DNA of 16,180 nt from positions 1 through 16,180 of IMG/VR virus record IMGVR_UViG_2529292886_000014; one strand, written 5' to 3'. The stretch is from a virus (Duplodnaviria; Heunggongvirae; Uroviricota; Caudoviricetes). The number at the start of each line of letters is the position of its first letter. Within the stretch, counting starts at the first letter, position 1. The notes under the pieces were generated by a model, which was not told where the DNA came from, made no database searches, and worked only from the letters and a program-made list of their open reading frames with translations. Positions 1,595 to 16,180 of this stretch are shown here, one piece after another. A program made the translations under genes and the position numbers.

Positions 1595-1783
1595 GTGTTA
1601 AGCACTGATCGGTTTATACGTGAAAAAGAATGCGAAAAACTAACCGGCCTTAGCCGTACGTGTCGCTACCGCCTGGAAAAGGCCGGACAATTCCCATCAC
1701 GTCGTAAACTTGGCGGTCGTTCCGTTGGCTGGTCTTTATCCGAGGTTCTGGCCTGGAAGGATAGCTGCAAGGCAGTTCATTAA
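1595..1783 (+). CDS. alpA: AlpA-family phage regulatory protein (excisionase-like HTH)
   Basis: 62-aa ORF with GTG start at 1595 preceded by SD AGGGGG (1584-1589). Sequence ...LTGLSRTCRYRLEKAGQFPSRRKLGGRSVGWSLSEVLAWK matches the AlpA/Xis-type HTH pattern (recalled, not searched). Position directly after int is typical of P4-like elements and PICIs. Confidence 0.8.
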   Translation: MLSTDRFIREKECEKLTGLSRTCRYRLEKAGQFPSRRKLGGRSVGWSLSEVLAWKDSCKAVH

Positions 1784-1929
1784 TCACGCTGGCGGCACGC
1801 AGCCGCCACACATCAATCATCTGAACACAGAGCTATAACCATGAAGATTGAATATACGCCAGAACGTGGGCGGGGATTCGTTCGCCCTGGTGAAACTGAA
1901 AAACAACAAAATTGGGGTTTTTCAGGCAT

Positions 1930-1957
1930 AAAAAAAGCGGCCCCGAAATGGAGCCGC
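1930..1957 (-). terminator. Rho-independent terminator for the minus-strand RHH operon
   Basis: Minus-strand RNA reads GCGGCUCC-AUUUC-GGGGCCGC (8-bp stem, one G-U wobble) followed by UUUUUUU (plus-strand A-run 1930-1936). It sits about 95 bp downstream of the minus-strand ORF ending at 2053 and before the converging alpA. Confidence 0.55.
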
Positions 1958-2052
1958 CTTTCTGAACAGATAACCCGCTGCGCCGTTTGTGTGTGTGATT
2001 CCAAACATAAGAACGGCAATGATAGCCGCTATCAGGCTGGTGGGCAATGCAA

Positions 2053-2226
2053 TCAGTCTGGTTCAGTTCGTTGCCATACCTGCAATGAGCGCGTTTCCCT
2101 GTACTCTTTAAGGAATTGCTCAAGGGCAAAAGCACATGGCGCGAATCTTTCTGATTCATGCTCTATCTTTCTGCGCCGTCTTTTCCGTGCCGGTGATAAT
2201 GTTTTGGTCAATTCTTTATCGGTCAT
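2053..2226 (-). CDS. Hypothetical small basic protein (57 aa), second gene of the RHH operon
   Basis: Minus-strand ORF MTDKELTKTLSPARKRRRRKIEHESERF... Start taken at the second ATG (2224-2226), preceded by AGGA at about 7 nt. Lies between the RHH gene and the minus-strand terminator. No recognisable family; could be non-coding. Confidence 0.3.
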   Translation of the reverse strand: MTDKELTKTLSPARKRRRRKIEHESERFAPCAFALEQFLKEYRETRSLQVWQRTEPD

Positions 2227-2283
2227 TGTGTTGTCCTGCATAGCAATGCGCCGTAATACCTTACACCACGGCGCTGATGGTGA

Positions 2284-2589
2284 TTACTCTGGTTCTTTGG
2301 TCTTGCGGCGCTGGAGTTCTTCACGTGCGACAGTGACGAGCTGCCCGATCTCCTCGGCGGCTTTGATTCCGAGTTTTTCCACCTGCGCCAGTGCATCGAG
2401 CGAAGAAACCAGGGGATTTTCTCCACTTCCTTCTGCCTGGCGCCGGGCGATCTCACCGCGTACAGCCGTAACTATAAAATTCGCTTTAGTTTCCCCTGGC
2501 TGTAGGGATGCCTCAATGCCACTCACTACTTCATGTGGAAATCTGGCATTCAGTTGCTGTGACTTATTGTTAACAGAACTCCTGGACAT
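2284..2589 (-). CDS. Arc/Mnt-like ribbon-helix-helix DNA-binding protein (putative satellite repressor)
   Basis: Start ATG at 2587-2589 (minus) preceded by SD GGAGGT with 6-nt spacing. 101-aa product MSRSSVNNKSQQLNARFPHEVVSGIEASLQPGETKANFIVTAVRGEIARRQ...; the LNARFPHEV...ANFIVTAVRGEI block parallels the Arc N-terminus (FNLRWPREV...). The track ORF (2284..2769) carries a 60-codon N-terminal extension judged spurious. Confidence 0.65.
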   Translation of the reverse strand: MSRSSVNNKSQQLNARFPHEVVSGIEASLQPGETKANFIVTAVRGEIARRQAEGSGENPLVSSLDALAQVEKLGIKAAEEIGQLVTVAREELQRRKTKEPE

Positions 2590-2632
2590 GTTTGCACCTC
2601 CCATTAATAACGGGATGCAGTGTAATACAAAA

Positions 2633-2686
2633 GTGAATACCAAAAAAGACTTGAAATGGTATTCACCTAAATGTAATGTGAATACC
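2633..2686. promoter_or_regulatory. Operator-like array of three 9-bp half-sites between divergent transcription units
   Basis: GTGAATACC at 2633-2641, its reverse complement GGTATTCAC at 2658-2666, and GTGAATACC again at 2678-2686. Located 44-97 bp upstream of the RHH start codon and about 110 bp upstream of the first plus-strand gene (2795). Confidence 0.45.
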
Positions 2687-2794
2687 ACAAGTGCTGATAC
2701 ATGCAATTCAGCAATTGAAACGACGAAGCCCCGCACTGTTGGAGCAGTAACGGGGCTTCTAACCACCAACGATAACGAGAGTATCGAGGTAGCT

Positions 2795-2998
2795 ATGAGA
2801 AATCATACCACACACCCGCAAGGGCGGGACCCGCACAACCTGAATAAATACATCTGGCGTTTTATCGCCCTGAGTACGGCACAACCGCGCGTGATTACCA
2901 TTGAGGCCAGCAGCGAACAGGAAGCACGCCAGCAATCCCCGGCTGGCTGCGTGATGGTATTCGCCGCCCGTATTCGTCAGGGGGTGTTCCATGCCTGA
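2795..2998 (+). CDS. Small protein (67 aa), possibly Icd-like cell-division inhibitor family
   Basis: ATG at 2795 with SD GAGG at 2786-2789. Product MRNHTTHPQGRDPHNLNKYIWRFIALSTAQPRV...VMVFAARIRQGVFHA. The THPQG and IWRF/FAARI motifs resemble my recollection of 'Icd-like' small proteins of P4-like prophages (unverified). Stop overlaps the next start (ATGCCTGA). Confidence 0.4.
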   Translation: MRNHTTHPQGRDPHNLNKYIWRFIALSTAQPRVITIEASSEQEARQQSPAGCVMVFAARIRQGVFHA

Positions 2999-3311
2999 CA
3001 TGACCAATTACCAGTACCTGATTAATCCGCATTTTAACTGTGAGCATGATATTGCTAAAAAGGTTTATTCCGCTGCTGATGGGGCTACTGACAATATATC
3101 AATGGCTGTTGCCTCAATTGGTAACCTGATGTGGTATGCGTCAGAAAATGAGGAATATGACGAAAAGGCCATGCGCATTGACATGGGGAATATTGGCTTG
3201 TTACTGGCAATGCTTGGGCAGTTTGATATTTCGTTACGGTGCACCATTGAAAATGCCGCAGATGCATTAAATGCCATAAAGAAAGCGAATACTGATTCAA
3301 ATCGGGGATAA
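2991..3311 (+). CDS. Hypothetical protein (106 aa)
   Basis: ORF with SD AGGGGG about 6 nt upstream; start/stop overlap with the preceding gene. No family recognised. Confidence 0.55.
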   Translation: MPDMTNYQYLINPHFNCEHDIAKKVYSAADGATDNISMAVASIGNLMWYASENEEYDEKAMRIDMGNIGLLLAMLGQFDISLRCTIENAADALNAIKKANTDSNRG

Positions 3312-3317
3312 ATAATC

Positions 3318-3617
3318 ATGAGAACATATTTATCTGGCTTGACTGCCAGCGGTTATGCACACCCTAAAATTATCCCCGGCGCTATTTATCTGGATAAGAA
3401 CGGTAACAGAGTAACGGTAAAAGAACTGATGTTTGACCGTGTGTATTTTATTCGTGATGGCTATTCATTTCATAGTTCGCTGAACGTGGAGATCTTTATT
3501 AGCAGATTCCGGCGGGAAATCCCGACTTCCAGAAATAACCATGTGTCACGTGTGGATGTGGATAAAAAACTACAGGAACTGAAAAACATGATTGCCTCGT
3601 GGAGAGAGCAGAAATGA
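3318..3617 (+). CDS. Hypothetical protein (99 aa)
   Basis: ORF starting 7 nt after the previous stop. Its stop overlaps the primase start (ATGA at 3614-3617). No family recognised. Confidence 0.55.
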   Translation: MRTYLSGLTASGYAHPKIIPGAIYLDKNGNRVTVKELMFDRVYFIRDGYSFHSSLNVEIFISRFRREIPTSRNNHVSRVDVDKKLQELKNMIASWREQK

Positions 3618-5431
3618 AAAAAGCGCCAAATTTAAAACACCAGCCACGTGACAAAATGACGGAAGTCATCATTTTTGCGGGTAGTGATGCGTGGGCACAT
3701 GCGAAGCAGTGGCAGGAACAGGACGGGCGACTGGCTGGCGATAACGTGCCACCTGTCTGGCTTGGAGAGCAACAACTTGCCGAACTGGACAACCTGCAAA
3801 TCGTACCGGACGGACGCTATCGCGTGCGTCTCTACCAGGCGGGGTTATTGCGTCCTGGGCTTGTTAATACCATCGGGCAGAAACTGGCAGCGGCAGGTGT
3901 CAGGGATGCTGATTATTATCCTGAAGGAATGCACAGCCAGAAACGGGAGAACTGGCGCGAATATCTGGAACGTGAGCGGGGAGAGCTGGCGGAAAAGAAA
4001 AAGGTAGTTGAACTGCCTGTAAAGAAAAAAGAGCGGGTAAAAGACGATAACGCTTCATCACTGGCGCTTAACCAGATGGGAGCAAGTCAACGCGGCGAAG
4101 TTCTCCTGGCACATTATGGCGGGGAACTGGCGATTCATGCCGACTCTGACACTGTTCACCATTACAACGGCGTTATATGGGAGCCGGTTCAGGATAAAGA
4201 ATTACAGCGAGCTATGGCACAGATTTTCATTGATGCGGAGATCAGCTATTCGCAGAACGCCATTAAATCGGCGGTCGATACCATGAAGTTAAGTTTGCCT
4301 GTAATGGGGAATACAGCCCGTAACCTGATTGGATTCAGTAACGGGGTATTTGATACCAGAACAGGTAATTTTCGGGAGCATAACAAAAACGACTGGTTGT
4401 TAATTGCCAGTGAATTACCTTTCAGCCCACCAGCAGAGGGGGAAACGCTGGCAACACATGCGCCGAATTTCTGGAAGTGGTTACGCCGTTCGGTGGCTGA
4501 GAATGACCGCAAGGCGGATCGCGTACTGGCTGCATTATTCATGGTGCTGGCGAACCGGTACGACTGGCAGTTATTCATTGAGGTAACAGGTCCAGGGGGA
4601 AGTGGTAAAAGCGTGATGGCGGAGATTTGCACCATGCTGGCGGGTAAGGCCAACACAGTATCGGCAAGCATGAAGGCGCTGGAAGATGCAAGGGAACGCG
4701 CGTTAGTGGTTGGCTTTTCGCTGATTATCATGCCGGATATGACCCGCTACGCTGGTGATGGGGCAGGGATTAAGGCTATTACAGGCGGTGACAAGGTGGC
4801 AATTGACCCGAAACACAAAGCCCCCTACTCAACGCGTATTCCGGCAGTAGTGCTGGCGGTTAACAATAACGCCATGTCATTCAGTGACCGCAGCGGGGGG
4901 ATCTCACGTCGTCGGGTGATATTCAATTTTTCGGAAGTTGTACCGGAGAACGAACGCGATCCAATGCTGGCGGAAAAAATAGAAGGTGAGCTGGCGGTAG
5001 TGATTCGCCATCTGCTTACACGGTTTGCTGACCAGGACGAAGCCAGACGCCTGTTATATGAGCAGCAGAAATCTGAAGAAGCACTGGCGATAAAGCGAGA
5101 GGGGGATTCGCTGGTGGACTTCTGCGGCTATCTCATGGCGTCGGTAATGTGTGATGGCCTGTTAGTGGGTAATGCTGAAATTGTACCATTCAGCCCACGC
5201 AGGTATCTCTATCATGCCTATCTGGCTTATATGCGGGCACATGGGTTTGGTAAACCTGTAACACTGACGCGCTTCGGTAAAGATATGCCGGGGGCAATGG
5301 CGGAATATGGCAGGGAGTATATGAAACGGAAAACGAAGCACGGTTTGCGTTCAAACGTGACACTGACGGAGGAATCAGAAGACTGGATGCCATCATGTGT
5401 ATCGGTCACTAATGACGATAGCAAAAATTAA
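3614..5431 (+). CDS. P4 alpha-like primase-helicase (replication initiator)
   Basis: About 605 aa from the ATG at 3614 (SD GGAGAGAG at 3601-3608); the track ORF begins at an upstream GTG (3599). Walker A motif GPGGSGKS in the C-terminal half, consistent with the P4-family primase C-terminal NTPase domain (recalled). Immediately followed by TGTTCACC iterons, the sequence bound by P4 alpha. Confidence 0.85.
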   Translation: MKKAPNLKHQPRDKMTEVIIFAGSDAWAHAKQWQEQDGRLAGDNVPPVWLGEQQLAELDNLQIVPDGRYRVRLYQAGLLRPGLVNTIGQKLAAAGVRDADYYPEGMHSQKRENWREYLERERGELAEKKKVVELPVKKKERVKDDNASSLALNQMGASQRGEVLLAHYGGELAIHADSDTVHHYNGVIWEPVQDKELQRAMAQIFIDAEISYSQNAIKSAVDTMKLSLPVMGNTARNLIGFSNGVFDTRTGNFREHNKNDWLLIASELPFSPPAEGETLATHAPNFWKWLRRSVAENDRKADRVLAALFMVLANRYDWQLFIEVTGPGGSGKSVMAEICTMLAGKANTVSASMKALEDARERALVVGFSLIIMPDMTRYAGDGAGIKAITGGDKVAIDPKHKAPYSTRIPAVVLAVNNNAMSFSDRSGGISRRRVIFNFSEVVPENERDPMLAEKIEGELAVVIRHLLTRFADQDEARRLLYEQQKSEEALAIKREGDSLVDFCGYLMASVMCDGLLVGNAEIVPFSPRRYLYHAYLAYMRAHGFGKPVTLTRFGKDMPGAMAEYGREYMKRKTKHGLRSNVTLTEESEDWMPSCVSVTNDDSKN

Positions 5432-5442
5432 ACTTATGGAAT

Positions 5443-5667
5443 AACTGTTCACCACTGTTCACCCTGTCATAAATATCTTTTATATCAGTATATTATAGGG
5501 TGAACAGTTATTTATGAACTGTTCACCAAACTATTCACTGTTCACCTTTTTGATTGTTTATTGAGCTTCAAGGGTGAACAGTGGTGAACAGTTGGTGAAT
5601 AGTTTTTGTGAAACTGTTCACCCATTAACATTATGAATTAAAAGATAAAATATCAAAAGGTGAACAG
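5443..5667. repeat. Iteron array, putative origin of replication (P4 ori/crr-like)
   Basis: About 10 copies of the core TGTTCACC / GGTGAACA (often extended to AACTGTTCACC) in both orientations within 225 bp of AT-rich DNA: 5443-5453, 5454-5463, 5499-5509, 5517-5527, 5536-5546, 5573-5582, 5583-5593, 5594-5604 (degenerate), 5612-5622, 5659-5667. Confidence 0.75.
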
Positions 5668-5718
5668 GTGAAGGGTTAAAACGCAAAAATTTTAATTTAC
5701 TGCTGTGAGATAAAGCCT

Positions 5719-5964
5719 ATGACAGCGAAGCACACAAAAAAATCACAATCGCACGCCCTTGATTTGACGGAACACTGGTTAAGGGTGTCGATAAAAATCA
5801 TCGACCGCAACGCCGGGGAAGGATATGCGAAAGCACATCCCGAACTAATAAGCGCATTCATGACCACGGCGGCGGCAAACTTTGCCACGCTGACGGAACG
5901 GGAGATTGCCGAAGCGGAACAGGTAACAACCATCAACGTTAAAACCGGAGAGGTGGAATCATGA
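5719..5964 (+). CDS. Hypothetical protein (81 aa)
   Basis: ORF between the iteron origin and ssb. Its stop overlaps the ssb start (ATGA), suggesting translational coupling. No family recognised. Confidence 0.5.
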   Translation: MTAKHTKKSQSHALDLTEHWLRVSIKIIDRNAGEGYAKAHPELISAFMTTAAANFATLTEREIAEAEQVTTINVKTGEVES

Positions 5965-6371
5965 CAGCACAGATAGCCGCTTACGGGCGGCTGGTGGACG
6001 ACCCGCAGGTAAAACAGACCAGCAAGGGCACACCGATGACGCTGGCGCGTATGGCGGTCCCCCCTCCGTGCAGCCAGGCAGATGACGGAACGGCGACGAT
6101 GTGGTTATCCGTCCTGGCATTTGGCAGACAGGCCGAAGCACTGGCAAGGCACCGCAAGGGTGAACTCCTGAGCGTGGCGGGTAACATGCAGATCAGCCAG
6201 TGGACCGGACAGAACGGGGAAACACTGCAGGGTTATCAGGTTATTGCAGACAGCGTAATCAGTGCCCGCGCGGCACGTCCTGGCGGGAACAGACGCAAAA
6301 CCACAGGCACACAGGGTAATCAGCCACCAGCGGGAGGCGATGACCCTTACGGTGACGGTATTCCGTTCTGA
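5961..6371 (+). CDS. ssb: Single-stranded DNA-binding protein (SSB-like)
   Basis: SD GGAGG at 5948-5952. OB-fold-like pattern G.L..DP.V...G...W..V..FG..AE.....RKG...G...W....G that parallels E. coli SSB, a Gly/Pro/Gln-rich linker, and the C-terminal tail ...DDPYGDGIPF (compare SSB ...DDDIPF). Confidence 0.75.
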   Translation: MTAQIAAYGRLVDDPQVKQTSKGTPMTLARMAVPPPCSQADDGTATMWLSVLAFGRQAEALARHRKGELLSVAGNMQISQWTGQNGETLQGYQVIADSVISARAARPGGNRRKTTGTQGNQPPAGGDDPYGDGIPF

Positions 6372-6381
6372 GGGGGTGACG

Positions 6382-6654
6382 ATGGTACATGACCGCATAG
6401 CGGAAGAACTCGAGGCGAAAGGCTTTTACCGGAGGGCGGCGGCGCGATGGGGTGAAGTCATGCAGCTGGTGGAGACAGACAAGGAACGGCATCACATCAC
6501 GATGCGACGGCTGGAATGTTGCAGGAAGGCACAGAGGCCACCGGAGCCACCGGATAATTACGGAGACCTGAAAAAGGCAGTCGATCGCACTTATGCCGAA
6601 ATGGGGATAGATGGTGCTGGTGATGAAATATGGCGCAATTACCAGGACAGCTAA
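6382..6654 (+). CDS. PerC-family-like small transcriptional regulator (90 aa)
   Basis: ATG at 6382 preceded by SD GAGGGGGTG. The N-terminal motif AEELEAKGFYRRAAARWGEVM resembles the PerC/Pch family signature as I recall it (unverified). The track ORF 6262..6654 overlaps ssb and is judged N-terminally over-extended. Confidence 0.5.
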   Translation: MVHDRIAEELEAKGFYRRAAARWGEVMQLVETDKERHHITMRRLECCRKAQRPPEPPDNYGDLKKAVDRTYAEMGIDGAGDEIWRNYQDS

Positions 6655-6660
6655 TCACAC

Positions 6661-6684
6661 AGCCGGAGAAATCCGGCTTTTTTT
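6661..6684 (+). terminator. Rho-independent terminator
   Basis: AGCCGGA-GAAA-TCCGGCT followed by TTTTTTT, directly after the stop at 6654. Confidence 0.7.
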
Positions 6685-6779
6685 GCACCAGTTGAAACGG
6701 TATGGCGCATTACCGGGTTTTCGTCACGGTCTGGCATAGTTACTATCTGAAACAAACAGACACAACAGAGGAAAAAACA

Positions 6780-7004
6780 ATGCCGATGAAATTTGATGAG
6801 ATATTAAAACAGCGTGATAAATACCATGCTGACAACATGGAGACGATGAGCATCAATGATTACCGCGCATTCCTGGAGACGGGCGCACTGATTGAAAAGG
6901 ATCAGCATGGTTTTGTTAGATGTGCTCTATCCGGTGAAATGCTGGCGGTAAATCCTGAACAGATAGATGCAATGATAGAATTTCTGAAAGGGATCAGGGA
7001 CTGA
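6780..7004 (+). CDS. Hypothetical small protein (74 aa) in a terminator-bracketed cassette
   Basis: ATG at 6780 preceded by SD GAGGAAAA. The track ORF begins at an upstream ATG (6702) with no SD. Flanked by the two near-identical terminators. Confidence 0.5.
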   Translation: MPMKFDEILKQRDKYHADNMETMSINDYRAFLETGALIEKDQHGFVRCALSGEMLAVNPEQIDAMIEFLKGIRD

Positions 7005-7013
7005 GCACGCATA

Positions 7014-7036
7014 CAGCCGGAGCAATCCGGCTTTTT
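7014..7036 (+). terminator. Rho-independent terminator (near-duplicate of 6661-6684)
   Basis: AGCCGGA-GCAA-TCCGGCT followed by TTTTTGTCATTTTTTG. Same stem as the upstream terminator, different loop. Confidence 0.7.
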
Positions 7037-7056
7037 GTCATTTTTTGTAAATTATT

Positions 7057-7083
7057 TGTTCGTGGTTGTTCCACGTTGTTCAC
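7057..7083. promoter_or_regulatory. Dyad element TTGTT-CGTGG-TTGTT-CCACG-TTGTT upstream of the head operon
   Basis: CGTGG (7061-7065) and CCACG (7071-7075) are reverse complements, separated and flanked by TTGTT. A half-copy TTGTTCCACGTTGTT recurs at 14581-14595. Confidence 0.35.
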
Positions 7084-7263
7084 TGACAGGATCGGCATAT
7101 TTTACCCGAACTGAATCATGATTATTCTCGCCCGTGGTGCCAGGACGCTGGGGCCATTTTTCCCGCCTGTTAATGTGTTCACCAATATTCATTCATTACC
7201 AGGCGGGAAAGCAATCGGTGCGTTTACTGATTTCCTTATGAAAAAGCGTTGAGTTTTTGCCGC

Positions 7264-7300
7264 GTCCTGGAGTTCCTTACTTAACCCCAGGACTTTTTTT
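7264..7300 (+). promoter_or_regulatory. Hairpin plus T-run abutting the capsid gene start (possible attenuator or RBS-sequestering structure)
   Basis: GTCCTGG (7264-7270) and CCAGGAC (7287-7293) form a 7-bp stem with a 16-nt loop, followed by TTTTTTT (7294-7300) and the capsid ATG at 7301. The only SD-like AGGA lies inside the right arm of the stem. Confidence 0.3.
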
Positions 7301-8458
7301 ATGCCGAGAATAATCGAATTACGCCAGCAGAAAACCGCCATTAAAAATCAGATGCGCGACATGCTGGAGAACGCGGAAAAAGAAAACCGCAGCCTTAACG
7401 ATGCAGAGGGCGCAAAATTTGACGAATTACGCGCTAAAGCTGAATCCCTCGATAAAGACATTTCCCGCCTTGAAGCCATTGCAGACGAAGAGCGCAGCAA
7501 GCCAGGTAAAAGCAGCCAGACCACTGACCCGGCAGAACTCCGCAACTACATCCTGACAGGTGAAACCCGCGCATTAAGTACAGGTGTCCCCGCTGATGGT
7601 GGTTATACCGTTATCCCTGAACTGAACACCGAAATCATGCGAATGCTGGCGGATGAGTCCACCATGCGCCGCATCTGTACCGTGAAAAAAATCAGCAGCA
7701 ACGAGTTTAAGCAGCTTGTTTCCGCTGGCGGTGCGGTCGTTAACCACGGTGAAGAGGGTAAGGCACGCGAACAGACCAGCACCCCGCAGATTAACGAGGT
7801 GAGCATTAAGCTGTATCCGGTCTATGCGTACCCGCGCACCACACAGGAAATCGTGGATTTTTCCGATGTGGACATCCTTTCATGGCTGACGGGCGAGATT
7901 GGCGACACCTTCACGGAAACCGAAGAAAGTGATCTGGTTGTGGGCGACGGTGACAAAAAAGCAAAAGGTTTTTTATCCGTACCCCGTGCAGAGAAGAACG
8001 ACAAAGAACGTGATTTCGGAACGTTGCAGGTTATCAAGCCCGTTGATGATCTTGCCTGGACATCTGCGGACCCGCTGATCGATCTGAAATTTGCATTACG
8101 TAAAAAATACCGCAAGAACGCGGTATGGGTGGTTAACTCCACGACGGCGGCAAAACTCCAGAAGGTGAAGAATGCGAACGGGGATTATATATGGCGTGAC
8201 CGTTTACAGGCGGGTGATCCTGACACATTGCTGGGCCTTCCGGTCGAATATCTGGAGTTTATGCCGGATAACGTTATTGCCCTGGGCGACTTTAAACGCG
8301 GTTACTACATCGTTGATCACGAAACAGGTGTTCGCACCAGACCGGACAACCTGACAGAACCAGGATTCATCAAAATTTTCACGCAAAAATATTTAGGCGG
8401 TGGCGTGGTGGATTCGAACGCGATCAAGATTCTGGAACTGCCACAGGACGACGATTAA
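7301..8458 (+). CDS. Major capsid protein, HK97 fold, with N-terminal coiled-coil delta/scaffold-like domain
   Basis: 385 aa. The N-terminal ~100 aa are charged and helical (RQQKTAIKNQMRDMLENAEKENRSLNDAEGAKFDELRAKAESLDKDISRLEAIADEE). The C-terminal part LLGLPVEYLEFMPDNVIALGDFKRGYYIVDHETGVRTRPDNLTEPGFIKIF fits the HK97-family capsid pattern (recalled). Confidence 0.9.
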   Translation: MPRIIELRQQKTAIKNQMRDMLENAEKENRSLNDAEGAKFDELRAKAESLDKDISRLEAIADEERSKPGKSSQTTDPAELRNYILTGETRALSTGVPADGGYTVIPELNTEIMRMLADESTMRRICTVKKISSNEFKQLVSAGGAVVNHGEEGKAREQTSTPQINEVSIKLYPVYAYPRTTQEIVDFSDVDILSWLTGEIGDTFTETEESDLVVGDGDKKAKGFLSVPRAEKNDKERDFGTLQVIKPVDDLAWTSADPLIDLKFALRKKYRKNAVWVVNSTTAAKLQKVKNANGDYIWRDRLQAGDPDTLLGLPVEYLEFMPDNVIALGDFKRGYYIVDHETGVRTRPDNLTEPGFIKIFTQKYLGGGVVDSNAIKILELPQDDD

Positions 8459-8468
8459 CAGCATACAG

Positions 8469-8497
8469 AAGGGGCTAAAAAGCCCCTTTAGTGTTTT
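8469..8497 (+). terminator. Intrinsic terminator/attenuator downstream of the capsid gene
   Basis: AAGGGGCT-AAAA-AGCCCCTT followed by the T-rich tail TAGTGTTTTATG, between the capsid stop (8458) and the protease start (8514). Confidence 0.55.
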
Positions 8498-8513
8498 ATG
8501 GGTGAAAAAAATT

Positions 8514-9071
8514 ATGAAGAGTATGGAAATCCGGTCATCGGAAATCACCACCAGCGCCAGCAACACGCTTACAGGCTACGTTGTTCGCTGGGATAACCTT
8601 TCGGAACTGTTATGGGGGGAGTTTTACGAAAAATTCCAGCGGGGGGCGTTTACTGAGTGGCTTGCGGCGGGTAATGACGTTCGCGGCCTGTATGAGCATG
8701 ACCACAGCATGTTACTGGGGCGCACCCGTTCCGGCACGCTGAAACTGGAAGAGGACGACACAGGGTTACGCTTTGAACTTACCCCACCGGATACCAGCAC
8801 AGGGCGTGACGTTATCGAACTGGTTAAACGTGGTGATATATCCGGCATGAGCTTTGGCTTTCGTTCCCGTAAGGATGTATGGGATACCACAACAGATCCA
8901 TGCGTGCGCACCGTGCTGGTGGCGGAACTGTACGAAATTACCGTTACATCCGTACCGGCTTACCCCGATTCCGGCGTGGAGCTGGCCCGCCGTTCCCTGT
9001 ATGAGCAGCACCCCGAAAAAATGCCGCGTGCGGATAATCGCCGCTGGTGGGCGGATTTAGCGGGGGTGTGA
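8514..9071 (+). CDS. Prohead maturation protease, HK97 family
   Basis: 185 aa from the ATG at 8514 (the track ORF is extended to 8400 across the terminator). Motifs TGYVVRWDN, GLYEHD and GMSFGF match the HK97 prohead protease family (recalled). Confidence 0.85.
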   Translation: MKSMEIRSSEITTSASNTLTGYVVRWDNLSELLWGEFYEKFQRGAFTEWLAAGNDVRGLYEHDHSMLLGRTRSGTLKLEEDDTGLRFELTPPDTSTGRDVIELVKRGDISGMSFGFRSRKDVWDTTTDPCVRTVLVAELYEITVTSVPAYPDSGVELARRSLYEQHPEKMPRADNRRWWADLAGV

Positions 9072-9072
9072 T

Positions 9073-10284
9073 ATGTGGCCTTTCAGAAGAAAAAAAGAGC
9101 AGCGCAGCATGACGCTTGATGAATTTATGGCGCTGGCTGGCACATCGAACACGGGGGCGGGTGAGTACGTATCATCGGGGACAGCGGAATCACTCCCCGC
9201 CGTCATGAACGCCGTCACGGTCATCTCTGAGGCGGTGGCTACTATGCCATGCTACCTGTACCTGGTACGCAATGAGAAGGGGAAGGAGGCCCGCGAGTGG
9301 CTTGATTCTCATCCGGTCGATCATATCCTCAACGAGCGCCCGAACGCATGGCAAACCCCCTACCAGTTTAAGCGAATGATGATCCGCCACTGCCTGTTAA
9401 ACGGTAATGCTTACGCGGTGATTCAGTGGGGGCGTGATGGTTTTCCGGCGGCTTTACATCCTTACCCGCCGCAGTCGGTGAACGTGGAGCAGACAGGAGA
9501 ACACAACTGGCGCTATTGCATCACTGACGCCTACACCGGAAACACCCGCAACTATTTACCGTGGGAAGTACTTCACCTTCGTTACTCCACGGATGACGGC
9601 TTTATGGGGCGCTCACCTGTAACCATCTGCCGCGAATCGCTGGGGCTTGGGCTGGCCCAACAACGCCACGGCGCGAGCGTGATGCGTGATGGCATGATGG
9701 CGGCAGGGGTTATCACGTCAGGCGAATGGCTGGACGGCGTGAAAGGCAAACAGGCATTAGCCGCACTGGAACGCTATAAAGGGGCCAAAAACGCCGGAAA
9801 AACGCCCATCCTTGAAGGGGGCATGAGTTACCAGCAGCTGGGCATGAGTAACCAGGACGCCGAATGGCTGGCCTCCCGTCGCTTCACCATTGAAGACATC
9901 GCCCGAATGTTCAACGTCTCGCCGATTTTTCTGCAGGAATACAGCAACAGCACCTACAGCAATTTCAGCGAGGCAAGCCGCGCATTTCTCACCATGACGA
10001 TGCGCCCGTGGCTGGCGAACTTTGAGCAGCAGATAAAAAACGCCTTGCTGGTGGTCTCGCCTGTACCTGGTATCCGGTATCAGGTGGAGTTTGACAGCGC
10101 GGACCTGTTACGGGCCACACCTGGCGAACGCTTTGCCACCTATGAGCGAGGCATCAAATCCGGTGTTATGTGCCCGAACGAAGCCCGCGAACGAGAAGGG
10201 TTGTCTCCGCGTGATGGTGGTGATGAGTTCAGCCAGGCATGGAAACAGGAAGTAAAAATCAGCGAGGGAGAAAAACCGGAATGA
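9073..10284 (+). CDS. Portal protein, HK97 family
   Basis: 403 aa. Motifs NERPNAWQTPYQF, LLNGNAYAVI, GRSPV, EDIARMFNVSPIFL and NEAREREGLSP...GGD follow the HK97-family portal pattern (recalled). Starts 2 nt after the protease stop. Confidence 0.85.
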   Translation: MWPFRRKKEQRSMTLDEFMALAGTSNTGAGEYVSSGTAESLPAVMNAVTVISEAVATMPCYLYLVRNEKGKEAREWLDSHPVDHILNERPNAWQTPYQFKRMMIRHCLLNGNAYAVIQWGRDGFPAALHPYPPQSVNVEQTGEHNWRYCITDAYTGNTRNYLPWEVLHLRYSTDDGFMGRSPVTICRESLGLGLAQQRHGASVMRDGMMAAGVITSGEWLDGVKGKQALAALERYKGAKNAGKTPILEGGMSYQQLGMSNQDAEWLASRRFTIEDIARMFNVSPIFLQEYSNSTYSNFSEASRAFLTMTMRPWLANFEQQIKNALLVVSPVPGIRYQVEFDSADLLRATPGERFATYERGIKSGVMCPNEAREREGLSPRDGGDEFSQAWKQEVKISEGEKPE

Positions 10285-10619
10285 ACATAGGGCGACTGCG
10301 TGACAGGGTAACGATTCAGACCCTGAAACAGACCAGAGCCATGACGGGCGAAATACTCGAAACGTGGGAGGACGGTCACACACTCTGGGCAAGCGTGAAC
10401 ATGGTCAGCAGCAAGGAGGCCATTTCATCGGGTGCAGAGCTGGCGATTGGTACCGTAAGGATCTGGATACGGTACCGGAAGGACATCAACGCCACCAGCC
10501 GGATAAAGGTCAATACGGGGCCGCTGGCGGGGCGTGTACTGAATATCATCGGGCAGCCGCTGCCGGATGCCGCCAGGACACGCCTTGAAATTCTTTGTCG
10601 TGAGGGCGCGGAAAAATGA
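10281..10619 (+). CDS. Head-closure / head-tail joining protein (HK97 gp7-like)
   Basis: 112 aa from the ATG at 10281 (SD GAGGGAG; ATGA overlap with the portal stop). The N-terminus MNIGRLRDRVTIQ matches the head-tail joining family motif (recalled). Confidence 0.75.
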   Translation: MNIGRLRDRVTIQTLKQTRAMTGEILETWEDGHTLWASVNMVSSKEAISSGAELAIGTVRIWIRYRKDINATSRIKVNTGPLAGRVLNIIGQPLPDAARTRLEILCREGAEK

Positions 10620-10912
10620 CAGAAGAACTTATCACCCTAGAAGAAGTGAAACTCCATTGCCGCATCGATGGCGACGAGGAAGACCAGTTAATCAGCGGAT
10701 ACATTGCCGCATCGCTTGAGGCGTGCCAGATACACATAGGCAGGCGCTTTGATGACGGGCTGGAGTTCACGCCAGCCATAAAGATTGGCTGCATGATGTT
10801 TATCGCTCACCTGTATGAGAATCGCCAGATTGTCGCGGATAACGCAAAAACACACGTACCCATGACGATTGGCGCACTCTGGACGGCTTACCGTGATGTG
10901 GGGGTGTACTGA
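10616..10912 (+). CDS. Head-tail connector protein (gp6-like)
   Basis: 98 aa. N-terminus MTEELITLEEVKLHCRIDGDEEDQLISGYIAASLEACQIHIGRRF matches the gp6-like connector signature (recalled). Confidence 0.8.
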   Translation: MTEELITLEEVKLHCRIDGDEEDQLISGYIAASLEACQIHIGRRFDDGLEFTPAIKIGCMMFIAHLYENRQIVADNAKTHVPMTIGALWTAYRDVGVY

Positions 10913-11352
10913 TGCCGTGGCAACCATTAAGACGATGTACAGAACCAGGCTGCAACAGGCGCGTGAAGTCCGGCAAGTGTGAGGAGCACAGACGCAGCGC
11001 ACGCCAGCAGCAGGACAGCCGGAGAGGCAGCAGCAGGGAGCGAGGGTATACGAGGCAGTGGGAGAAATACCGCGCCATGTATCTGAGTAAAAACCCGTTA
11101 TGTGCGCATTGCCTGGAAAAAGGAATATACACGCCCGCCGTGGTGGTGGATCACATTATCCCAATCGATGGCGGTAATGATGTTCTCTTCTGGCCTGAGT
11201 GGAATCATCAGCCATTGTGCCAGGCGTGTCATAACCAGAAAACGAAATGGCTTGATCCGTCCACAAAAAACAAGCGTGCTGCGGGTGGATTCCGTGAGGA
11301 GGAAGAACGGGCCGCTAACCGCAATAACTGGATGTATGGCGCTGATGAATGA
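10912..11352 (+). CDS. HNH endonuclease (terminase-associated)
   Basis: 146 aa. CxxC pairs (CTEPGC, CAHC) and the HNH core VVDHIIPIDGGNDV...NHQPLCQACHNQKT. Start overlaps the previous stop (TGATG). Sits directly upstream of terS/terL. Confidence 0.9.
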   Translation: MPWQPLRRCTEPGCNRRVKSGKCEEHRRSARQQQDSRRGSSRERGYTRQWEKYRAMYLSKNPLCAHCLEKGIYTPAVVVDHIIPIDGGNDVLFWPEWNHQPLCQACHNQKTKWLDPSTKNKRAAGGFREEEERAANRNNWMYGADE

Positions 11353-11518
11353 GCGGGAACAAAACCGCCTTATCCGTGGACTTATAAGGCAGCGTGACGC
11401 ATGGAAGGCACAGGAAACAGGGCATAAAGATAAAGCATCAGGACGCGCAGAACGCATCACAGCGACGCGATTAAACGACCGTGACCGCGAGGTTATGGAA
11501 TGTTTCCGCAATCGCTGA
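11345..11518 (+). CDS. Hypothetical small protein (57 aa)
   Basis: In-frame ATG at 11345 within track ORF 11102..11518, overlapping the HNH stop; product MNEREQNRLIRGLIRQRDAWKAQETGHKDKASGRAERITATRLNDRDREVMECFRNR. No clear SD and no family recognised. Confidence 0.3.
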   Translation: MNEREQNRLIRGLIRQRDAWKAQETGHKDKASGRAERITATRLNDRDREVMECFRNR

Positions 11519-11640
11519 TGAGGCAGCCGGACGGGGTGGGGGGAGTTTTCAGGACGAACCCGACCCCGCCCAGAACCGAACGCCTCCTCAAATTTTTATG
11601 CACGGGAATTTTTTGAAAAATAATCTGACGAAAAATAAGC

Positions 11641-11997
11641 ATGGCAAGACCACCGAAAGCCCCCGCCTACCTGGATGATATCGCCGTGAAGCAGTGGCGG
11701 GAAAAATCGCGGCAGCTTGCGGAGCGGGGAGACCTGACCCCCGCCGACTGGAGCAATCTGGAACTGTATTGCGTCAACTACTCCATTTACCGGAAAGCCG
11801 TTGCAGACCTTGCGGCGCGCGGGTTCAGCATTGTTAACAGTCAGGGCGGCGAGAGCAGAAACCCCGCATTAAGCGCAAAATCCGACGCTGAAAGGGTGAT
11901 GATAAAAATGGCCTCCTTGCTTGGTTTTGACCCGATAAGCCGCCGTAAAAATCCACCGGAAACAGAAGAAGAGGACGAGCTTGACCGCCTGGAATAA
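11641..11997 (+). CDS. terS: Terminase small subunit (P27-family-like)
   Basis: 118 aa. Pattern MARPPKAP.YLDD.A...W......L...G.LT.AD...LE.YC..Y..YRKA...L...G....N..G....NPA......A...M.K.A..LGF.P..R matches the P27-type small terminase (recalled). Confidence 0.9.
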   Translation: MARPPKAPAYLDDIAVKQWREKSRQLAERGDLTPADWSNLELYCVNYSIYRKAVADLAARGFSIVNSQGGESRNPALSAKSDAERVMIKMASLLGFDPISRRKNPPETEEEDELDRLE

Positions 11998-13642
11998 GTA
12001 CGCAGAAGACGTAAAAACGGGCAAAATTCCGGCCTGTAAACGGCTGAAACAGGCCGTTAAACGGTACTTTTCGGACCTTGAAAGCCCCCTTTACACGTTC
12101 GATCGTGAGGTTGTGGAGCGGTTTATTGCCTTTTCCAGGGTGTGCCCGCACGTAAAAGGGCCGATGCGTGGCAGACCCATTGAGCTGGAGCCGTGGCAGC
12201 AGTTCGCCTTTGCGTGCATCCTCGGCTTTAAGGTTAAGGCCACCGGACGGCGCAAATACACGAGCGCCTTTATCGAAGTGCCGCGCAAAAATGCGAAATC
12301 CACGACCGCCGCGATTCTGGCTAACTGGTTTCTGATTATGGAGAACGGTCAGCAGGATATCTACACCGCAGCGGTGAGCCGTGACCAGGCGCGGATCGTC
12401 TTTGATGATGCGCGTCAGATGTGCCTTTTATCCCGACCGTTACGCAGGCGGGTGAATATTCAGGCGCATAAGGTGATACACCCGAAAAGCAACAGCCTGT
12501 TAAAGCCGCTGACAGGAAAAGCGGCAACCATCGAGGGAACAAACCCCAGCCTTTCCATCGTGGACGAATACCACTTGCACCCCGATAACGGCGTTTATTC
12601 CGCGCTTGAGCTGGGGATGGGCGCACGTCCCGAAGGGCTGTTATTTGCCATTACCACATCAGGCAGCAACGTCGTTTCAGCCTGTAAGCAGCACTATGAT
12701 TATTGCTGTCAGATCCTGGACGGCGAAGAGGTCAACGATTCAATTTTTGTACTGATTTACGAACTGGACGACGAAAACGAGGTTGATGATCCGGCGATGT
12801 GGATAAAGGCTAACCCTAACATCGATGTTTCCGTGGATCGTGAAAAACTGGCCTCAACCATCCAGAAAGCGCGGGGTATTCCGTCGCAGTGGGTGGAGAT
12901 GATGACAAAGCGATTTAATATCTGGTGTCAGGGGACTACCCCGTGGATGGGTAATGGTGCATGGGCTGAGTGTGCCGGAACGTTCACGGAGGAAGATTTA
13001 CACGGTCAGGAGTGTTACGCGGGGCTGGACTTATCATCAACCAGCGATATTTCCAGCGTGTGCTATGCCTTTCCGGTCGGTAAAAATATCATGCTGGTTT
13101 CCCGTCATTATCTGCCGGAGTTCCAGCTACAGAACCCCGCCAATAAAAACCGCGCTGTCTATCGCCAGTGGGCTAAAGCGGGCTGGATACGCACAACGCC
13201 AGGTGACTGCATTGATTACGACCGGATCAGAGATGACATCATGCAGGACGCGGAGAAATTTAATATCAGGCTGGTGGGCTTTGATACGTGGAACGCCACG
13301 CATCTCAGGACGCAATTACAGGGGGCTGGTTTTGAGGTGGAGCCGTTCCCGCAAACCTACCTCAGATTCAGTCCGGCGGCGAAATCGTTCGAAGTTTTTG
13401 TTAACCGCAGGGTGATTGTGCATCGTGGCGATCCGGTGTTGTCCTGGTCGATGAGTAACGTCGTGATGCAGAGTGACGCGAATGCCAATATCAAGCCGAA
13501 CAAGAAAAAATCACCGAACAAGATAGACCCGGGCGTGGCGGCACTGATGGCGTTTGGTACATTCCAGGCAGAGCATGAGGATTTTGCTTTTGATATAAGC
13601 GACAGCCACCGCCAGAAACTGGAAGAATTTAGCGGGGTGTAA
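11981..13642 (+). CDS. terL: Terminase large subunit
   Basis: 553 aa. The track start is a TTG at 11981 preceded by GAGGA and overlapping the terS end; the true start is uncertain. Walker-A-like VPRKNAKST, an acidic ATPase motif SIVDEYH, and a C-terminal nuclease-like region fit large terminases. Confidence 0.9.
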   Translation: MTAWNKYAEDVKTGKIPACKRLKQAVKRYFSDLESPLYTFDREVVERFIAFSRVCPHVKGPMRGRPIELEPWQQFAFACILGFKVKATGRRKYTSAFIEVPRKNAKSTTAAILANWFLIMENGQQDIYTAAVSRDQARIVFDDARQMCLLSRPLRRRVNIQAHKVIHPKSNSLLKPLTGKAATIEGTNPSLSIVDEYHLHPDNGVYSALELGMGARPEGLLFAITTSGSNVVSACKQHYDYCCQILDGEEVNDSIFVLIYELDDENEVDDPAMWIKANPNIDVSVDREKLASTIQKARGIPSQWVEMMTKRFNIWCQGTTPWMGNGAWAECAGTFTEEDLHGQECYAGLDLSSTSDISSVCYAFPVGKNIMLVSRHYLPEFQLQNPANKNRAVYRQWAKAGWIRTTPGDCIDYDRIRDDIMQDAEKFNIRLVGFDTWNATHLRTQLQGAGFEVEPFPQTYLRFSPAAKSFEVFVNRRVIVHRGDPVLSWSMSNVVMQSDANANIKPNKKKSPNKIDPGVAALMAFGTFQAEHEDFAFDISDSHRQKLEEFSGV

Positions 13643-13655
13643 TGAGGTCAGCAGC

Positions 13656-13937
13656 ATGACAGAAGCCGAAATACTGCGATTAATCCGCCGCGTCTCTGGA
13701 ATCAGCCAGCAGGCTGACGAACAGACCACGCAGCCGGACAGCGTGACAGCCGAAAATTATGCGCGTGTTGTTGCTGAGGTGATGCGCCGTGATGGTATCC
13801 AGCTTAATGATGTGGATATGCGCGACATACGGATCCGCGTTCTGGAAATGCTGGCCTATCGTCGCCGCGTGGAGATGTATCGGGAGAAGGAAAAAATAAC
13901 GTACCACTGGAAGAAGCCGGAGCGCTTGCGGCGGTAA
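13656..13937 (+). CDS. Hypothetical protein (93 aa), last gene of the element
   Basis: ATG at 13656 with SD GAGGT about 7 nt upstream, 14 nt after the terL stop. Charged and helical; no family recognised. Confidence 0.5.
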   Translation: MTEAEILRLIRRVSGISQQADEQTTQPDSVTAENYARVVAEVMRRDGIQLNDVDMRDIRIRVLEMLAYRRRVEMYREKEKITYHWKKPERLRR

Positions 13938-14230
13938 CTGGTTGATATTCCCGACGGCCCAAAAATGGGTGGCTACATCCCTCGCTTCTGAGGACTGTTA
14001 ACAAGCTGCCTGAAAGACAGTCACAAACTACGAAATTTTCGCAGTTTAATTAATGGTCAGCTTAATCGCTAACCCGCTGATATTTTCGGAAACCTCAATT
14101 TGAGGAAGTCGGCGCGGTAACTCGCTGAACTTAAAGCAAAGCTCAAAATTGAGCTGGCTGAATAATCATTATGATTACGCAGATGATTAAGGAATGACCG
14201 AAGGCGGAAATTCGCCTGTGGTTGATGGGG

Positions 14231-14250
14231 GAGTTGCAGATCTGCAACTC
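14231..14250. repeat. 20-bp perfect palindrome GAGTTGCAGATCTGCAACTC
   Basis: Read directly; the reverse complement is identical. Embedded in an ORF-poor stretch with several other dyads. Confidence 0.8.
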
Positions 14251-14719
14251 GACCATGAAACTACGGAAACTACCCGTAGTTTGGGTAGTAAGAGTAACAC
14301 CCAGATTTTGGGGCTTACTCGTGATACCCAAATTTGGGGTATCGGTGGCAACCATAACGACTTTCGTTACGGTTGATGCTTTTACCCCATTGGGGGAAAG
14401 GTATTACGATAATCATAACACCTACCGAACAGGTAAAACCCACCAGCCTGATTAACAGTTAACCGGAAAAAAAACCAGGTGGCCCCGTTATGGGGATCCC
14501 CATATCGACATTAACGCCCCTCATGAATTGGTGTGCTTCCCCCTGGAAAGATTACCCGCCTGTATATTTCTTGTGTCTATTTGTTCCACGTTGTTTCATA
14601 CAGTGCACCGAACGGTGTAGTTAATGGTGTAGTTAATTTGCTGTTTTTAGCACTTTTTGTAGTGTGAGTTTTTTAATTAAATTAATGGGTTACTTTGCTG
14701 TGGTGATAAAAGGACATAT

Positions 14720-16180
14720 TTATTCATCTTTCGGCGTAGAATGCTGGCGACCAAAAATCACCTCCATCCGCGCACCGCCAAGCATGCTCTCTCCGGCGAC
14801 GATTTTACCCTCATATTGCTTGGTGATTTCGCGGGCTACCGCCAGCCCCACACCTTGCCCAGGGCGTAAAGTATCAACCCGTTGACCACGGTCGAAAATG
14901 ACCTCTCGCTTGCTTAATGGAATACCGGGGCCATCATCCTCGACCACAATATAGAGATGCTCGTCGGTTTGCCTTGCAGAAATTTCGACAAACTCGAGGC
15001 AATATTTACAGGCATTATCCAGTACATTGCCCATCACCTCGACAAAATCGTTCTGCTCACCGACAAAGCTGATCTCTGGCGAAATATCGAGAGAGATATT
15101 GACCCCTTTGCGTTGATACACTTTGTTCAGCGCCGAGGTGAGATTGTCCAGCAGTGGGGCGACCGGATGCAGCTCGCGGCTGAGCAATGTCCCGCCGTGC
15201 ATACTGGCACGATGCAGGTAGTAGCCAATTTGCTGTGAAATGCGGCTGATTTGCTCCAGCATTACCGGTTCAGCATCACTGACGCTCATCTTTTCACTAC
15301 GTAGAGAACGCAGCGTACTTTGCAGCACCGCCAGTGGCGTTTTCAGACTATGGGTCAGGTCGGTGAGCGTTGTACGATATTTGTCGTAACGTTCGCGTTC
15401 ACTTTTTAACAATCGGTTCAGGTTTCGTACCAGACTGGTCAGTTCTCGCGTTGTGGCTGGATTGAGCAATTCGCGGTTATGTTCTTCCAGTTCGCGGACT
15501 TCTTTTGCCAGGGCTTCGATGGGGCGTAAACTCCACCAGGCGGCGACCCACAGCAGCGGGATCACTAACAGCAGATTGGCTGAGAGCACATAGATAAACC
15601 AGCTCCAGACCATATAGGAACTTTTTAGCTCCACCGGAATGGTATCCACCACCACAATGGTTAACTTTGGCATCCGCGATGTTGCCGGGTAGACGTTTAC
15701 CGCCACCGAGTGGGTCATCTCCGCGTCGTCATCATCTTCCCGCACTTCCTGCAACTGTTGCTGTATCGAATGATCTCCACTCAGCAAGAGGCTGGTATCG
15801 TTAACATCCGCTTCAATTTCATGAAAACCATTCGATTTCAGCCAGTCAGGCTGGATCATCTTCATCAGCCAGGGCACGTCACGTTGCGCCCATAAAAGCT
15901 GCCCGTTCTCATCATAAATTAGCGTCATGGTGGGGCTTTGCTTGTCGATATTTTCGGGTAACTCGACATGCAACTTATTGTTTTCCCACTTCGCAAGGGT
16001 ATAGAACAGATTGCTCTCGCCACGTAACAGCCGAAACGTAGTTTTATCGAAACTGACGCTATAACCGATCAGCGCGACCATTCCGTAGGCAAGCGAAAGC
16101 ACCAGTACTACCGCTGCCGTTGCCAACAGAAAACGTACCCGCAGCGAGAGCGGGAAAAAAAGACGCAGTAATTTTTTCAT
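14720..16180 (-). CDS. phoQ: Sensor histidine kinase PhoQ (PhoP/PhoQ two-component system)
   Basis: 486-aa minus-strand ORF whose translation is near-identical to Escherichia coli PhoQ as I remember it: two transmembrane segments, periplasmic sensor with acidic patch EDDDDAE, HAMP, H-box LTHSLKTPL, ATPase G-boxes DDGPGI and GQGVGL. The window ends exactly at its start codon. Confidence 0.95.

Follow-up and report, generated by a model that had tools for sequence, protein, structure and literature searches.

Dual-purpose recombination directionality factors (RDFs) are a well-established principle, exemplified by Cox of phage P2, Apl of phage 186 and Vis of the satellite P4. λ Xis is another winged-helix RDF with phased, head-to-tail sites at att and at promoters, and Vis reportedly acts at attP as well as at late promoters. 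Cox and Apl are small winged-helix proteins that act cooperatively on five to seven direct repeats 10–11 bp apart, both at attP and at promoters, and RDFs of this kind occupy, head-to-tail, repeats spaced by one helical turn (PMC7498355, PMC3936717). A satellite promoter, P_LL of P4, is also activated by Cox, which binds 10-bp phased boxes upstream of it (PMC3936717). In phage-inducible chromosomal islands (PICIs) of Gram-negative bacteria, AlpA is induced by a helper, activates its own expression, and is both required and sufficient for excision and replication (PMC6092414, PMC11773190, PMC10803314); the literature that we searched defines no AlpA binding site and gives no account of how the packaging operon of capsid-forming PICIs (cf-PICIs) is controlled. 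Here we analyse 16,180 nucleotides of IMG/VR record IMGVR_UViG_2529292886_000014 (positions 1 to 16,180; the window), which from its gene content is a cf-PICI beside phoQ, close to EcCIEDL933 and EcCICFT073. The window carries arrays of a short repeat phased with the DNA helix, members of a set found at four positions in this island family, which we assign with a probability of about 60% to the island's own AlpA.

Phased arrays at four positions

A 15-mer, TTGTTCCACGTTGTT, occurs exactly at 7066–7080 and at 14581–14595, both on the + strand, as stated in the original prediction, which took it to mark the two borders of the head and packaging module, and such a pair is far beyond chance. The similarity of the two copies reaches 35 nt in register at 77% identity (7046–7080 versus 14561–14595). 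The statement that the window has no other copy did not survive: a copy with one mismatch (1298–1312) and another with two (1278–1292) lie on the minus strand, both within the array that we call A. With up to two mismatches allowed, the 15-mer has 4 sites in the window compared with 0.03 expected from shuffled sequences, and 4–6 sites per island compared with none in 83.5 kb of non-island E. coli DNA. The spaced motif TTGTTN5TTGTT occurs 6 times (0.07 expected), and runs of at least three TTGTN pentamers at 9–11 bp form 3 arrays (0.04 expected; 300 shuffles). An unbiased search of the window for any pentamer that occurs at least three times at 10–11-bp intervals returned only these arrays and the iterons of the replication origin. 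As a positive control, the same search applied to L109 recovered the mapped Apl operators of a 186-like prophage (PMC7498355), four at att and six between the early promoters (pR–pL). These are runs of TTTGCCA at 10–11 bp, four copies at 14395–14431 (+ strand) and six at 16084–16140 (− strand), which flank the int–cI region; the prophage adjoins a cf-PICI, and we rejected the idea that its arrays are a variant of the TTGTT system. A scan of viral contigs for TTGTTN5TTGTTN5TTGTT, a pattern with 15 specified bases, is saturated by chance matches at that scale.

The 15-mer amounts to one unit and a half of an operator 10 bp long that has the consensus TTGTTCCACG, in which TTGT is invariant. The units run head-to-tail, three to six per array and one helical turn apart, with invariant core pentamers and variable spacers; arrays A, B and C of the window have 5, 5 and 3 units, respectively, at 10 bp (11 bp once). 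With array L, which lies outside the window, they form a four-site set whose positions are kept in over 100 related islands. Among distinct sequences from islands that share the same AlpA recognition helix and wing, array L is present in 12 of 12, array A in 46 of 58 (counted over distinct int–alpA spacers) and array B in 26 of 26.

Array B (7035–7080, + strand) contains the first exact copy of the 15-mer and consists of five phased units, TTGTCATTTT TTGTAAATTAT TTGTTCGTGG TTGTTCCACG TTGTTCACTG; 412 of 5426 E. coli genomes have its region. Two capsid lineages, with capsid proteins that are 64–75% identical and leader DNA that is ~56% identical, share a 44-bp block without change (TTTTGTAAATTATTTGTTCGTGGTTGTTCCAsGTTGTTC). 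A dyad had been noted at this copy and is indeed present (TTGTTCGTGGTTGTTCCACGTTGTT, with CGTGG and CCACG as its arms), but it is not the conserved feature. The second capsid lineage has CCAGG in place of CCACG without a compensating change and keeps the TTGTT phasing invariant; we rejected a hairpin or palindromic operator because the dyad is broken, uncompensated, in that lineage. Array A (1278–1322, − strand) has five TTGTN units at 10 bp (TTGTTCGTAG TTGTTCCACA TTGTTGCTCA TTGTTGCACG TTGTATCTGT), 48–92 bp downstream of int and ~270 bp upstream of alpA. When int–alpA spacers are aligned, the AACAA columns are invariant at exact 10-bp intervals and the sequence between them is variable; in EcCICFT073 the array has six units. 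A further pair of TTGTN units, which we designate A2 tentatively (1538–1552, − strand; TTGTG TCGTA TTGTT), overlaps the −10 element of the best σ70-like candidate for an alpA promoter (TTGCCA-17-AACAAT, 1515–1543). The pair is partly conserved, with TTGTG present twice at the same place in EcCICFT073.

Arrays C and L lie in the att arms, 80–140 bp from the att core. Array C (14571–14595, + strand; units TTGTGTCTAT TTGTTCCACG TTGTTTCATA) contains the second exact copy of the 15-mer and occupies the right arm, 117–141 bp from the core; it is also present in capsid-less PICIs, including EcCICFT073. We place the core, GGACATATTTAT (14712–14723), and with it the island's right end at the stop codon of phoQ, because empty-site genomes align from 14712 onward; its attL counterpart is found in L001. 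A 12-bp tandem duplex, GGTGTAGTTAAT twice (14614–14637, + strand), starts 18 bp after array C and is a probable arm-type site for the integrase (Int); array C and duplex together were found in 934 of 5426 E. coli genomes. Array L, seen in relatives with DNA upstream of int, has four units 55–90 bp before the int start codon and is followed after 8 bp by GGTGTAGTTAAT twice (L001, CFT073 and O157). Both attP arms therefore have one layout in direct orientation, a 10-bp phased TTGTT array and then a 12-bp tandem duplex, and this layout recurs at no fewer than three different att cores and integration sites.

The duplexes follow the integrase. Duplex GTAGTTAAT goes with Int N-terminal type 1; GTAGTCACT goes with type 2 in both arms, including the recombinant L017, in which only residues 1–42 are exchanged; and TGTGTGGTCAGT goes with Int alleles of 65–67% identity; islands that are more distant have further variants. 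As the Int N-terminal allele changes, so does the variant in both arms (TTAAT, TCACT or GGTCAGT). AGTCACT, a part of the GTAGTCACT variant, resembles the λ arm-type consensus. Directly upstream of int, each Int allele has a 12-bp tandem duplex of its own (GGTGTAGTTAAT, GGTGTAGTCACT, TGTGTGGTCAGT, TGTGTATTGCAG, TTTAGTTATACG or TGTATAAACATT), and the other arm does likewise where it is visible; beyond the window, duplexes lie at 2755–2778 in L001, ~620–645 in L088, ~2310–2335 in L108, ~767–790 in L113 and ~7262–7286 in L098. The TTGTT arrays are constant across Int N-terminal types 1 and 2 and across Int alleles of 65–97% identity, and they are not confined to the attP arms. Because the duplexes covary with Int whereas the arrays remain constant, we conclude from the sequence comparison that the duplexes are the likely Int arm sites and that the TTGTT arrays belong to another protein.

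AlpA as the proposed binding protein

We consider it very likely that the arrays are operators of a single protein specific to this island family. That the two copies might be binding sites for one regulator had been suggested, and the predicted binding gains support from the phased repeats at four sites, their positional conservation and their invariant cores. For the identity of the protein we favour the island's own AlpA (probability roughly 0.6), on the basis of sequence, a structural model and analogy. The alpA gene (1595–1783, + strand) encodes a 62-amino-acid winged-helix protein of the AlpA/Vis family (Pfam Phage_AlpA, PF05930; 5.4e-17) that falls into a PHROG annotated as 'excisionase and transcriptional regulator'. 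Its AlphaFold2 model (pLDDT 86.5) has an excisionase-type winged-helix fold, with the GIsul2 excisionase 8c3t as the best PDB match (TM 0.79), followed by RdfS (0.68) and Pukovnik Xis. The arrays combine head-to-tail repeats one helical turn apart, at least three units per site and a position in the attP arm next to Int arm-type sites, in an island that encodes a small winged-helix RDF.

The distribution of the arrays may also link them to AlpA. The two AlpA alleles that occur with arrays have the recognition helix SRtcRYrLEK and the wing LGGRSVGW in common, whereas alleles at 40–52% identity differ in helix and wing and come from islands without arrays (array B in 0 of 3). When arm-array units are compared by AlpA allele, they fall into a TTGTTCCAC type and a TTGTTCGT type: of 126 units with allele 1, 70% have C at position 7, and all 15 units with allele 2 have G there, the Int alleles being partly linked to this division. 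Array B holds units of both allele-specific types, TTGTTCGTGG and TTGTTCCACG. Published genetics are consistent with such a role. For AlpA proteins nearly identical to that of the window (58 and 61 of 62 residues), it is published that AlpA activates a P_alpA fusion and on its own triggers int-dependent excision and replication, with int transcription unchanged, and that mutation of alpA abolishes cf-PICI induction (PMC6092414; 10.1101/2022.09.08.507074; also PMC11773190, PMC10803314). Helper induction of alpA is published for both EcCICFT073 and EcCIEDL933.

The nearest parallel is P4. AlpA of the window is a homologue of P4 Vis (ORF88; 45% identity, E=1e-16); both belong to PF05930, and the P4 record annotates Vis as 'excisionase and transcriptional regulator'. 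In the GenBank record of P4, the attP arm repeats are 12-bp tandem duplexes on both arms, as in the window island and its relatives, and a phased run of three TCCG at 10–11 bp abuts the int-proximal duplex, as array L does in the relatives; by analogy, this TCCG run would be a Vis site. The island differs in its motif (TTGTT rather than a TCCG-type run), in having arrays on both arms and in the extra array that fronts its own capsid and terminase operon, an operon that P4 lacks, its late genes being sid, delta and psu. AlpA of the Gram-negative PICIs EcCICFT073, EcCIEDL933, EcCIMP1 and PICMI115 is the same protein, and the two E. coli prototypes carry the same arrays. Cox and Apl resemble it in site architecture and are not AlpA-family proteins by sequence, an apl-like open reading frame (ORF) giving only weak helix–turn–helix matches; their promoter sites mainly repress the lysis–lysogeny switch, whereas array B fronts a morphogenesis operon that it is predicted to activate. 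RdfS of ICEMlSymR7A binds in oligomeric form both to attP directly upstream of int and to its own promoter, with about one protomer per 10 bp (PMC11963761); it has no consensus motif and an extra N-terminal oligomerisation helix, in contrast to the sharp motif and the 62-residue protein seen here.

The AlpA of Pseudomonas aeruginosa, a Q-like antiterminator, shares the name, and the capsid leader of the window also has terminator-like hairpins. That protein, however, has more than 140 residues and eight helices, loads as a single molecule between −35 and −10, on an element of 6 bp, and threads into the RNA exit channel (PMC9371919), which the 62-residue AlpA of the window cannot do. A PDB sequence search gave no match, and the arrays are multi-unit and lie upstream of the promoter, unlike a Q-like loading site. 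Antitermination by AlpA was rejected because the P. aeruginosa protein is a different and larger one.

Several observations weigh against AlpA as the binder. Because Int and AlpA alleles show partial linkage, it could be Int that the allele-specific unit consensus tracks, and two small island proteins, orf81 and orf93, co-occur with the arrays. Arrays stand in both att arms, where classical RDF sites usually occupy one. Array A, ~270 bp from alpA, points away from the gene. AlpA had no effect on a Pint fusion in EcCICFT073, although array L lies directly upstream of int (PMC6092414). The class of islands that lack array B is small (0 of 3) and phylogenetically clustered. In addition, TTTGTAAATTAT, which forms the first units of array B, is kept in cf-PICIs with an unrelated AlpA, and part of this array may serve another factor.

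The arrays could instead be bound by a different factor, be it an island protein such as orf81 or orf93, a helper-phage protein or a host nucleoid protein, which we judge unlikely. In its favour, every array-bearing element tested has orf81 and orf93 and the array-negative ones lack them, and TTTGTAAATTAT is conserved whatever the AlpA type; the three CCACTTAAAG boxes upstream of P_LL in P4 provide a precedent for a helper RDF at a satellite promoter (PMC3936717). However, neither Pfam nor PHROGs gives a DNA-binding signature for orf81 or orf93, and orf81 is 100% identical across the divide between AlpA alleles 1 and 2, the groups that differ in arm-unit consensus. AlpA alone, helper-free, triggers EcCICFT073 excision, which requires the att-arm factor to be island-encoded (PMC6092414), and AlpA is the only island protein with an excisionase fold; a host factor fails to explain why arrays are missing from related islands with other AlpA types. 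PerC was rejected as the binder because array B occurs in elements without detectable PerC (L055, L056 and L058). We think it very improbable that the arrays are sites for the N-terminal domain of Int, with arrays A and B being autoregulatory or fortuitous. Int does have an arm-binding domain, λ-type arm sites can be phased too, and both attP arms carry arrays 80–140 bp from the core. Yet a separate 12-bp duplex in both arms has the architecture of the P4 Int arm repeats and covaries with Int residues 1–42, whereas the arrays are unchanged over Int alleles of 65–97% identity and three att sites; the distance to the core is ~1.4 kb for array A and ~7.6 kb for array B, and strong purifying selection acts on array B at its place before the capsid operon.

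The original prediction also allowed that the two copies were left behind when recombination brought the 7.5-kb head module as one piece into a P4-like replicon, for which we see little room. We mapped the junctions by comparing the window with the capsid-less PICIs EcCICFT073, L014, L015 and L025: homology is lost at the T-run of a terminator (6683/7037) and returns at 13656, where a conserved 93-amino-acid ORF starts. Array B begins 1–2 bp past the left junction, directly after the intrinsic terminator that closes the upstream operon (7015–7036, + strand), and arrays B and C are direct repeats. The motif does then mark the left border, where array B sits at the edge of the exchanged module and travels with it; at the other border the claim fails, as array C lies ~925 bp to the right of the right junction (~13655). 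Satellites that lack the module and keep a single copy were proposed as a check and do exist, since of B and C the capsid-less relatives retain only C, but they keep it as an att-arm site and thus for another reason. Capsid-less islands carry arrays L, A and C, with neither array B nor any array at the position of the left junction. The capture scar is largely refuted because array C lies 925 bp outside the junction and because islands without capsid genes keep L, A and C: the right-hand copy is a conserved att-arm site with a mirror-image partner in the other arm, and islands in which the module was never present have both, along with array A. Moreover, pentamer cores that stay in phase while their spacers are free to vary are the signature of protein binding rather than of a junction relic, and among capsid modules of 98–99% identity the operator block itself has been swapped. 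That the arrays are iterons to which the primase-helicase binds, for replication from a P4-like ori/crr pair, is highly improbable. TGTTCCAC resembles the P4 type I iteron TGTTCACC, and P4 has two distant iteron clusters; but the island has a dense TGTTCACC cluster of its own (5443–5666), and the arrays persist with unrelated replication modules (a RepA-type helicase in L001, helicases of 44–49% identity in others). We rejected the iteron reading on these two grounds.

The head operon and the surrounding island

Array B stands in front of the head and packaging operon (7301–13642, + strand), which encodes, by Pfam, an HK97-type capsid protein, a protease, a portal, a head completion protein, a connector, an HNH protein, TerS and TerL; the operon can also be listed as having two connector proteins. 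No σ70 consensus promoter was found in 6950–7350. A candidate −10 element, TGATTATTCT (7119–7128, + strand), lies downstream of array B without a recognisable −35; the segment is conserved and homologous to TGATTATAAT in EcCICFT073. Array B and a −35-less promoter have the layout of an activator-dependent promoter, and we tentatively infer activation rather than repression.

Between this candidate promoter and the capsid AUG at 7301 lies a structured leader (7134–7300, + strand). Its RNA (~170 nt) folds with −62.8 kcal/mol (z=-4.4) into a hairpin followed by U5 (7134–7161), a long hairpin (7162–7207) and a hairpin (7264–7300) followed by U7 that abuts the AUG. The leader may be an attenuator or an antitermination target, and may form a second layer of control after initiation. 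In the distant cf-PICIs L105–L112, GTGGCACTCAGACGTGAGCCGCCAC is kept at the same place, ~120 nt upstream of the capsid genes. In the classical PICI EcCICFT073 (L124, ~15380–15450), the late operon for capsid redirection has a near-consensus promoter, TTGCTC-16-TATAAT, with a perfect 14-bp hairpin and T6 directly after it, which suggests control by a terminator and antiterminator rather than by an AlpA array.

In every enterobacterial cf-PICI capsid operon examined (L105–L109, L112 and L113), TTTGTAAATTAT lies upstream, whatever the type of AlpA. The block that follows it is swapped among capsid modules of 98–99% identity, being three TTACCC in L106 and L112 and a degenerate TTGTN run in L105 and L108. 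We looked in the distant cf-PICIs L105, L108, L112 and L113 for a replacement phased motif common to the att arms and the capsid promoter and found no clean specificity swap; in L112 and L106 the three TTACCC before the capsid gene have no matching arrays near int or alpA, and L112 has a different regulatory set with AAGTACTT palindromes. It is conceivable, although we regard it as doubtful, that array B is a portable regulatory 'plug' that wires a head and packaging module to the AlpA-type switch of an island, an excisionase-family protein having been recruited as late-gene activator.

The terminator at the left junction, AGCCGGAG(A/C)AATCCGGCTTTTT, is duplicated at 6656–6682 and 7010–7036 (27 nt, 93%), and the two copies (hairpins 6661–6682 and 7015–7036) bracket an accessory ORF (6702–7004, PHROG 1957). 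This ORF looks like a small cassette insertion, relatives without it having a single terminator. At the other end of the module, the ~630 bp from orf93 to array C (13938–14570) hold no convincing ORF and contain several palindromes, for example ACCCAAATTTGGGGT and AAACTACCCGTAGTTTGGGTAGT; parts of this region are common to capsid-less PICIs.

The remaining gene content is that of a cf-PICI: int, alpA, a primase-helicase and an ori are combined with the island's own HK97-type capsid, protease, portal, connector, HNH, TerS and TerL genes. The class is further defined by the lack of tail and lysis genes, a length of ~10–15 kb and a dedicated att site, a definition that the island fits. The int gene (1–1230, + strand) encodes a tyrosine integrase of the P4 family that has an arm-DNA-binding domain at its N terminus (Pfam Arm-DNA-bind_3, 5.6e-17, and Phage_integrase) and aligns with P4 Int over its full length (E=2e-15). 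A D5-type primase-helicase is encoded at 3599–5431, and directly after it the ori (5443–5666) has eleven TGTTCACC octamers in both orientations, with stray copies at 4153–4160 and 7176–7183. The octamer is identical to the type I iteron of P4 ori/crr, although the window helicase lacks the architecture of P4 alpha. The island also encodes ssb and perC, and the host gene phoQ follows at 14720–16180; Rfam and tRNA scans of the window gave no matches. EcCICFT073, the prototype Gram-negative PICI, occupies the same roxA/phoQ site and has an Int that is 94% identical and an AlpA that matches in 58 of 62 residues. A cf-PICI of O157:H7 in tqsA, which matches the published prototype EcCIEDL933, shares 61 of 62 AlpA residues with the window, and its helicase and capsid protein are 97% and 98% identical, respectively.

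Among the other genes, a 385-amino-acid ORF after alpA (1841–2998) has an N-terminal part that varies among relatives (35–94% identity) and a conserved C-terminal 90 residues that match PHROG 6196, 'transcriptional repressor'; RefSeq annotates it in relatives as Icd-like. The small proteins orf81 (5719–5964, PHROG 1231) and orf93 (13656–13937, PHROG 1561) are kept in array-bearing islands with or without capsid genes. In L108, a distant cf-PICI, three tandem AlpA-family genes (3606–4405) lie between int and the replication genes.

Implications for satellite biology

Taken with the published step in which a helper phage switches on alpA, the arrays suggest a sequence of events. AlpA would bind the arrays cooperatively; on arrays C and L, in the right and left arms beside the Int duplexes, it would fill or polymerise along the repeats, bend the arms and promote Int-dependent excision. 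On array A, with A2, in the int–alpA spacer it would act in autoregulation, for which an effect on a fragment is published and the site is our proposal. In cf-PICIs it would also act on array B, presumably as an activator, to turn on the head and packaging operon. The satellite would make capsids only once induced, because it is AlpA that would turn on the head operon through array B.

The principle is not new, and the present case extends it without adding a mechanism; the new element is the copy of the array before a satellite's own capsid operon. The AlpA operator, its four locations and this copy appear to be undescribed in the literature that we searched, in which the timing of capsid and terminase expression in cf-PICIs is likewise undescribed. 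For these islands the comparison yields an annotation rule, that 12-bp tandem duplexes are Int arm sites and 10-bp phased arrays are RDF or regulator sites, which helps to delimit att arms and to spot module swaps. From genetics, AlpA is known to be the master switch of phage satellites in Gram-negative bacteria, with its DNA target undefined in that literature, and TTGTTCCACG units one helical turn apart at four predictable places make a directly testable model. If the 'plug' proposal is true, the exchange of its operator cassette would be the step that converts a classical PICI into a capsid-forming one. If AlpA is the binder, one helper-induced protein of the excisionase type would couple excision, its own amplification and the production of heads.

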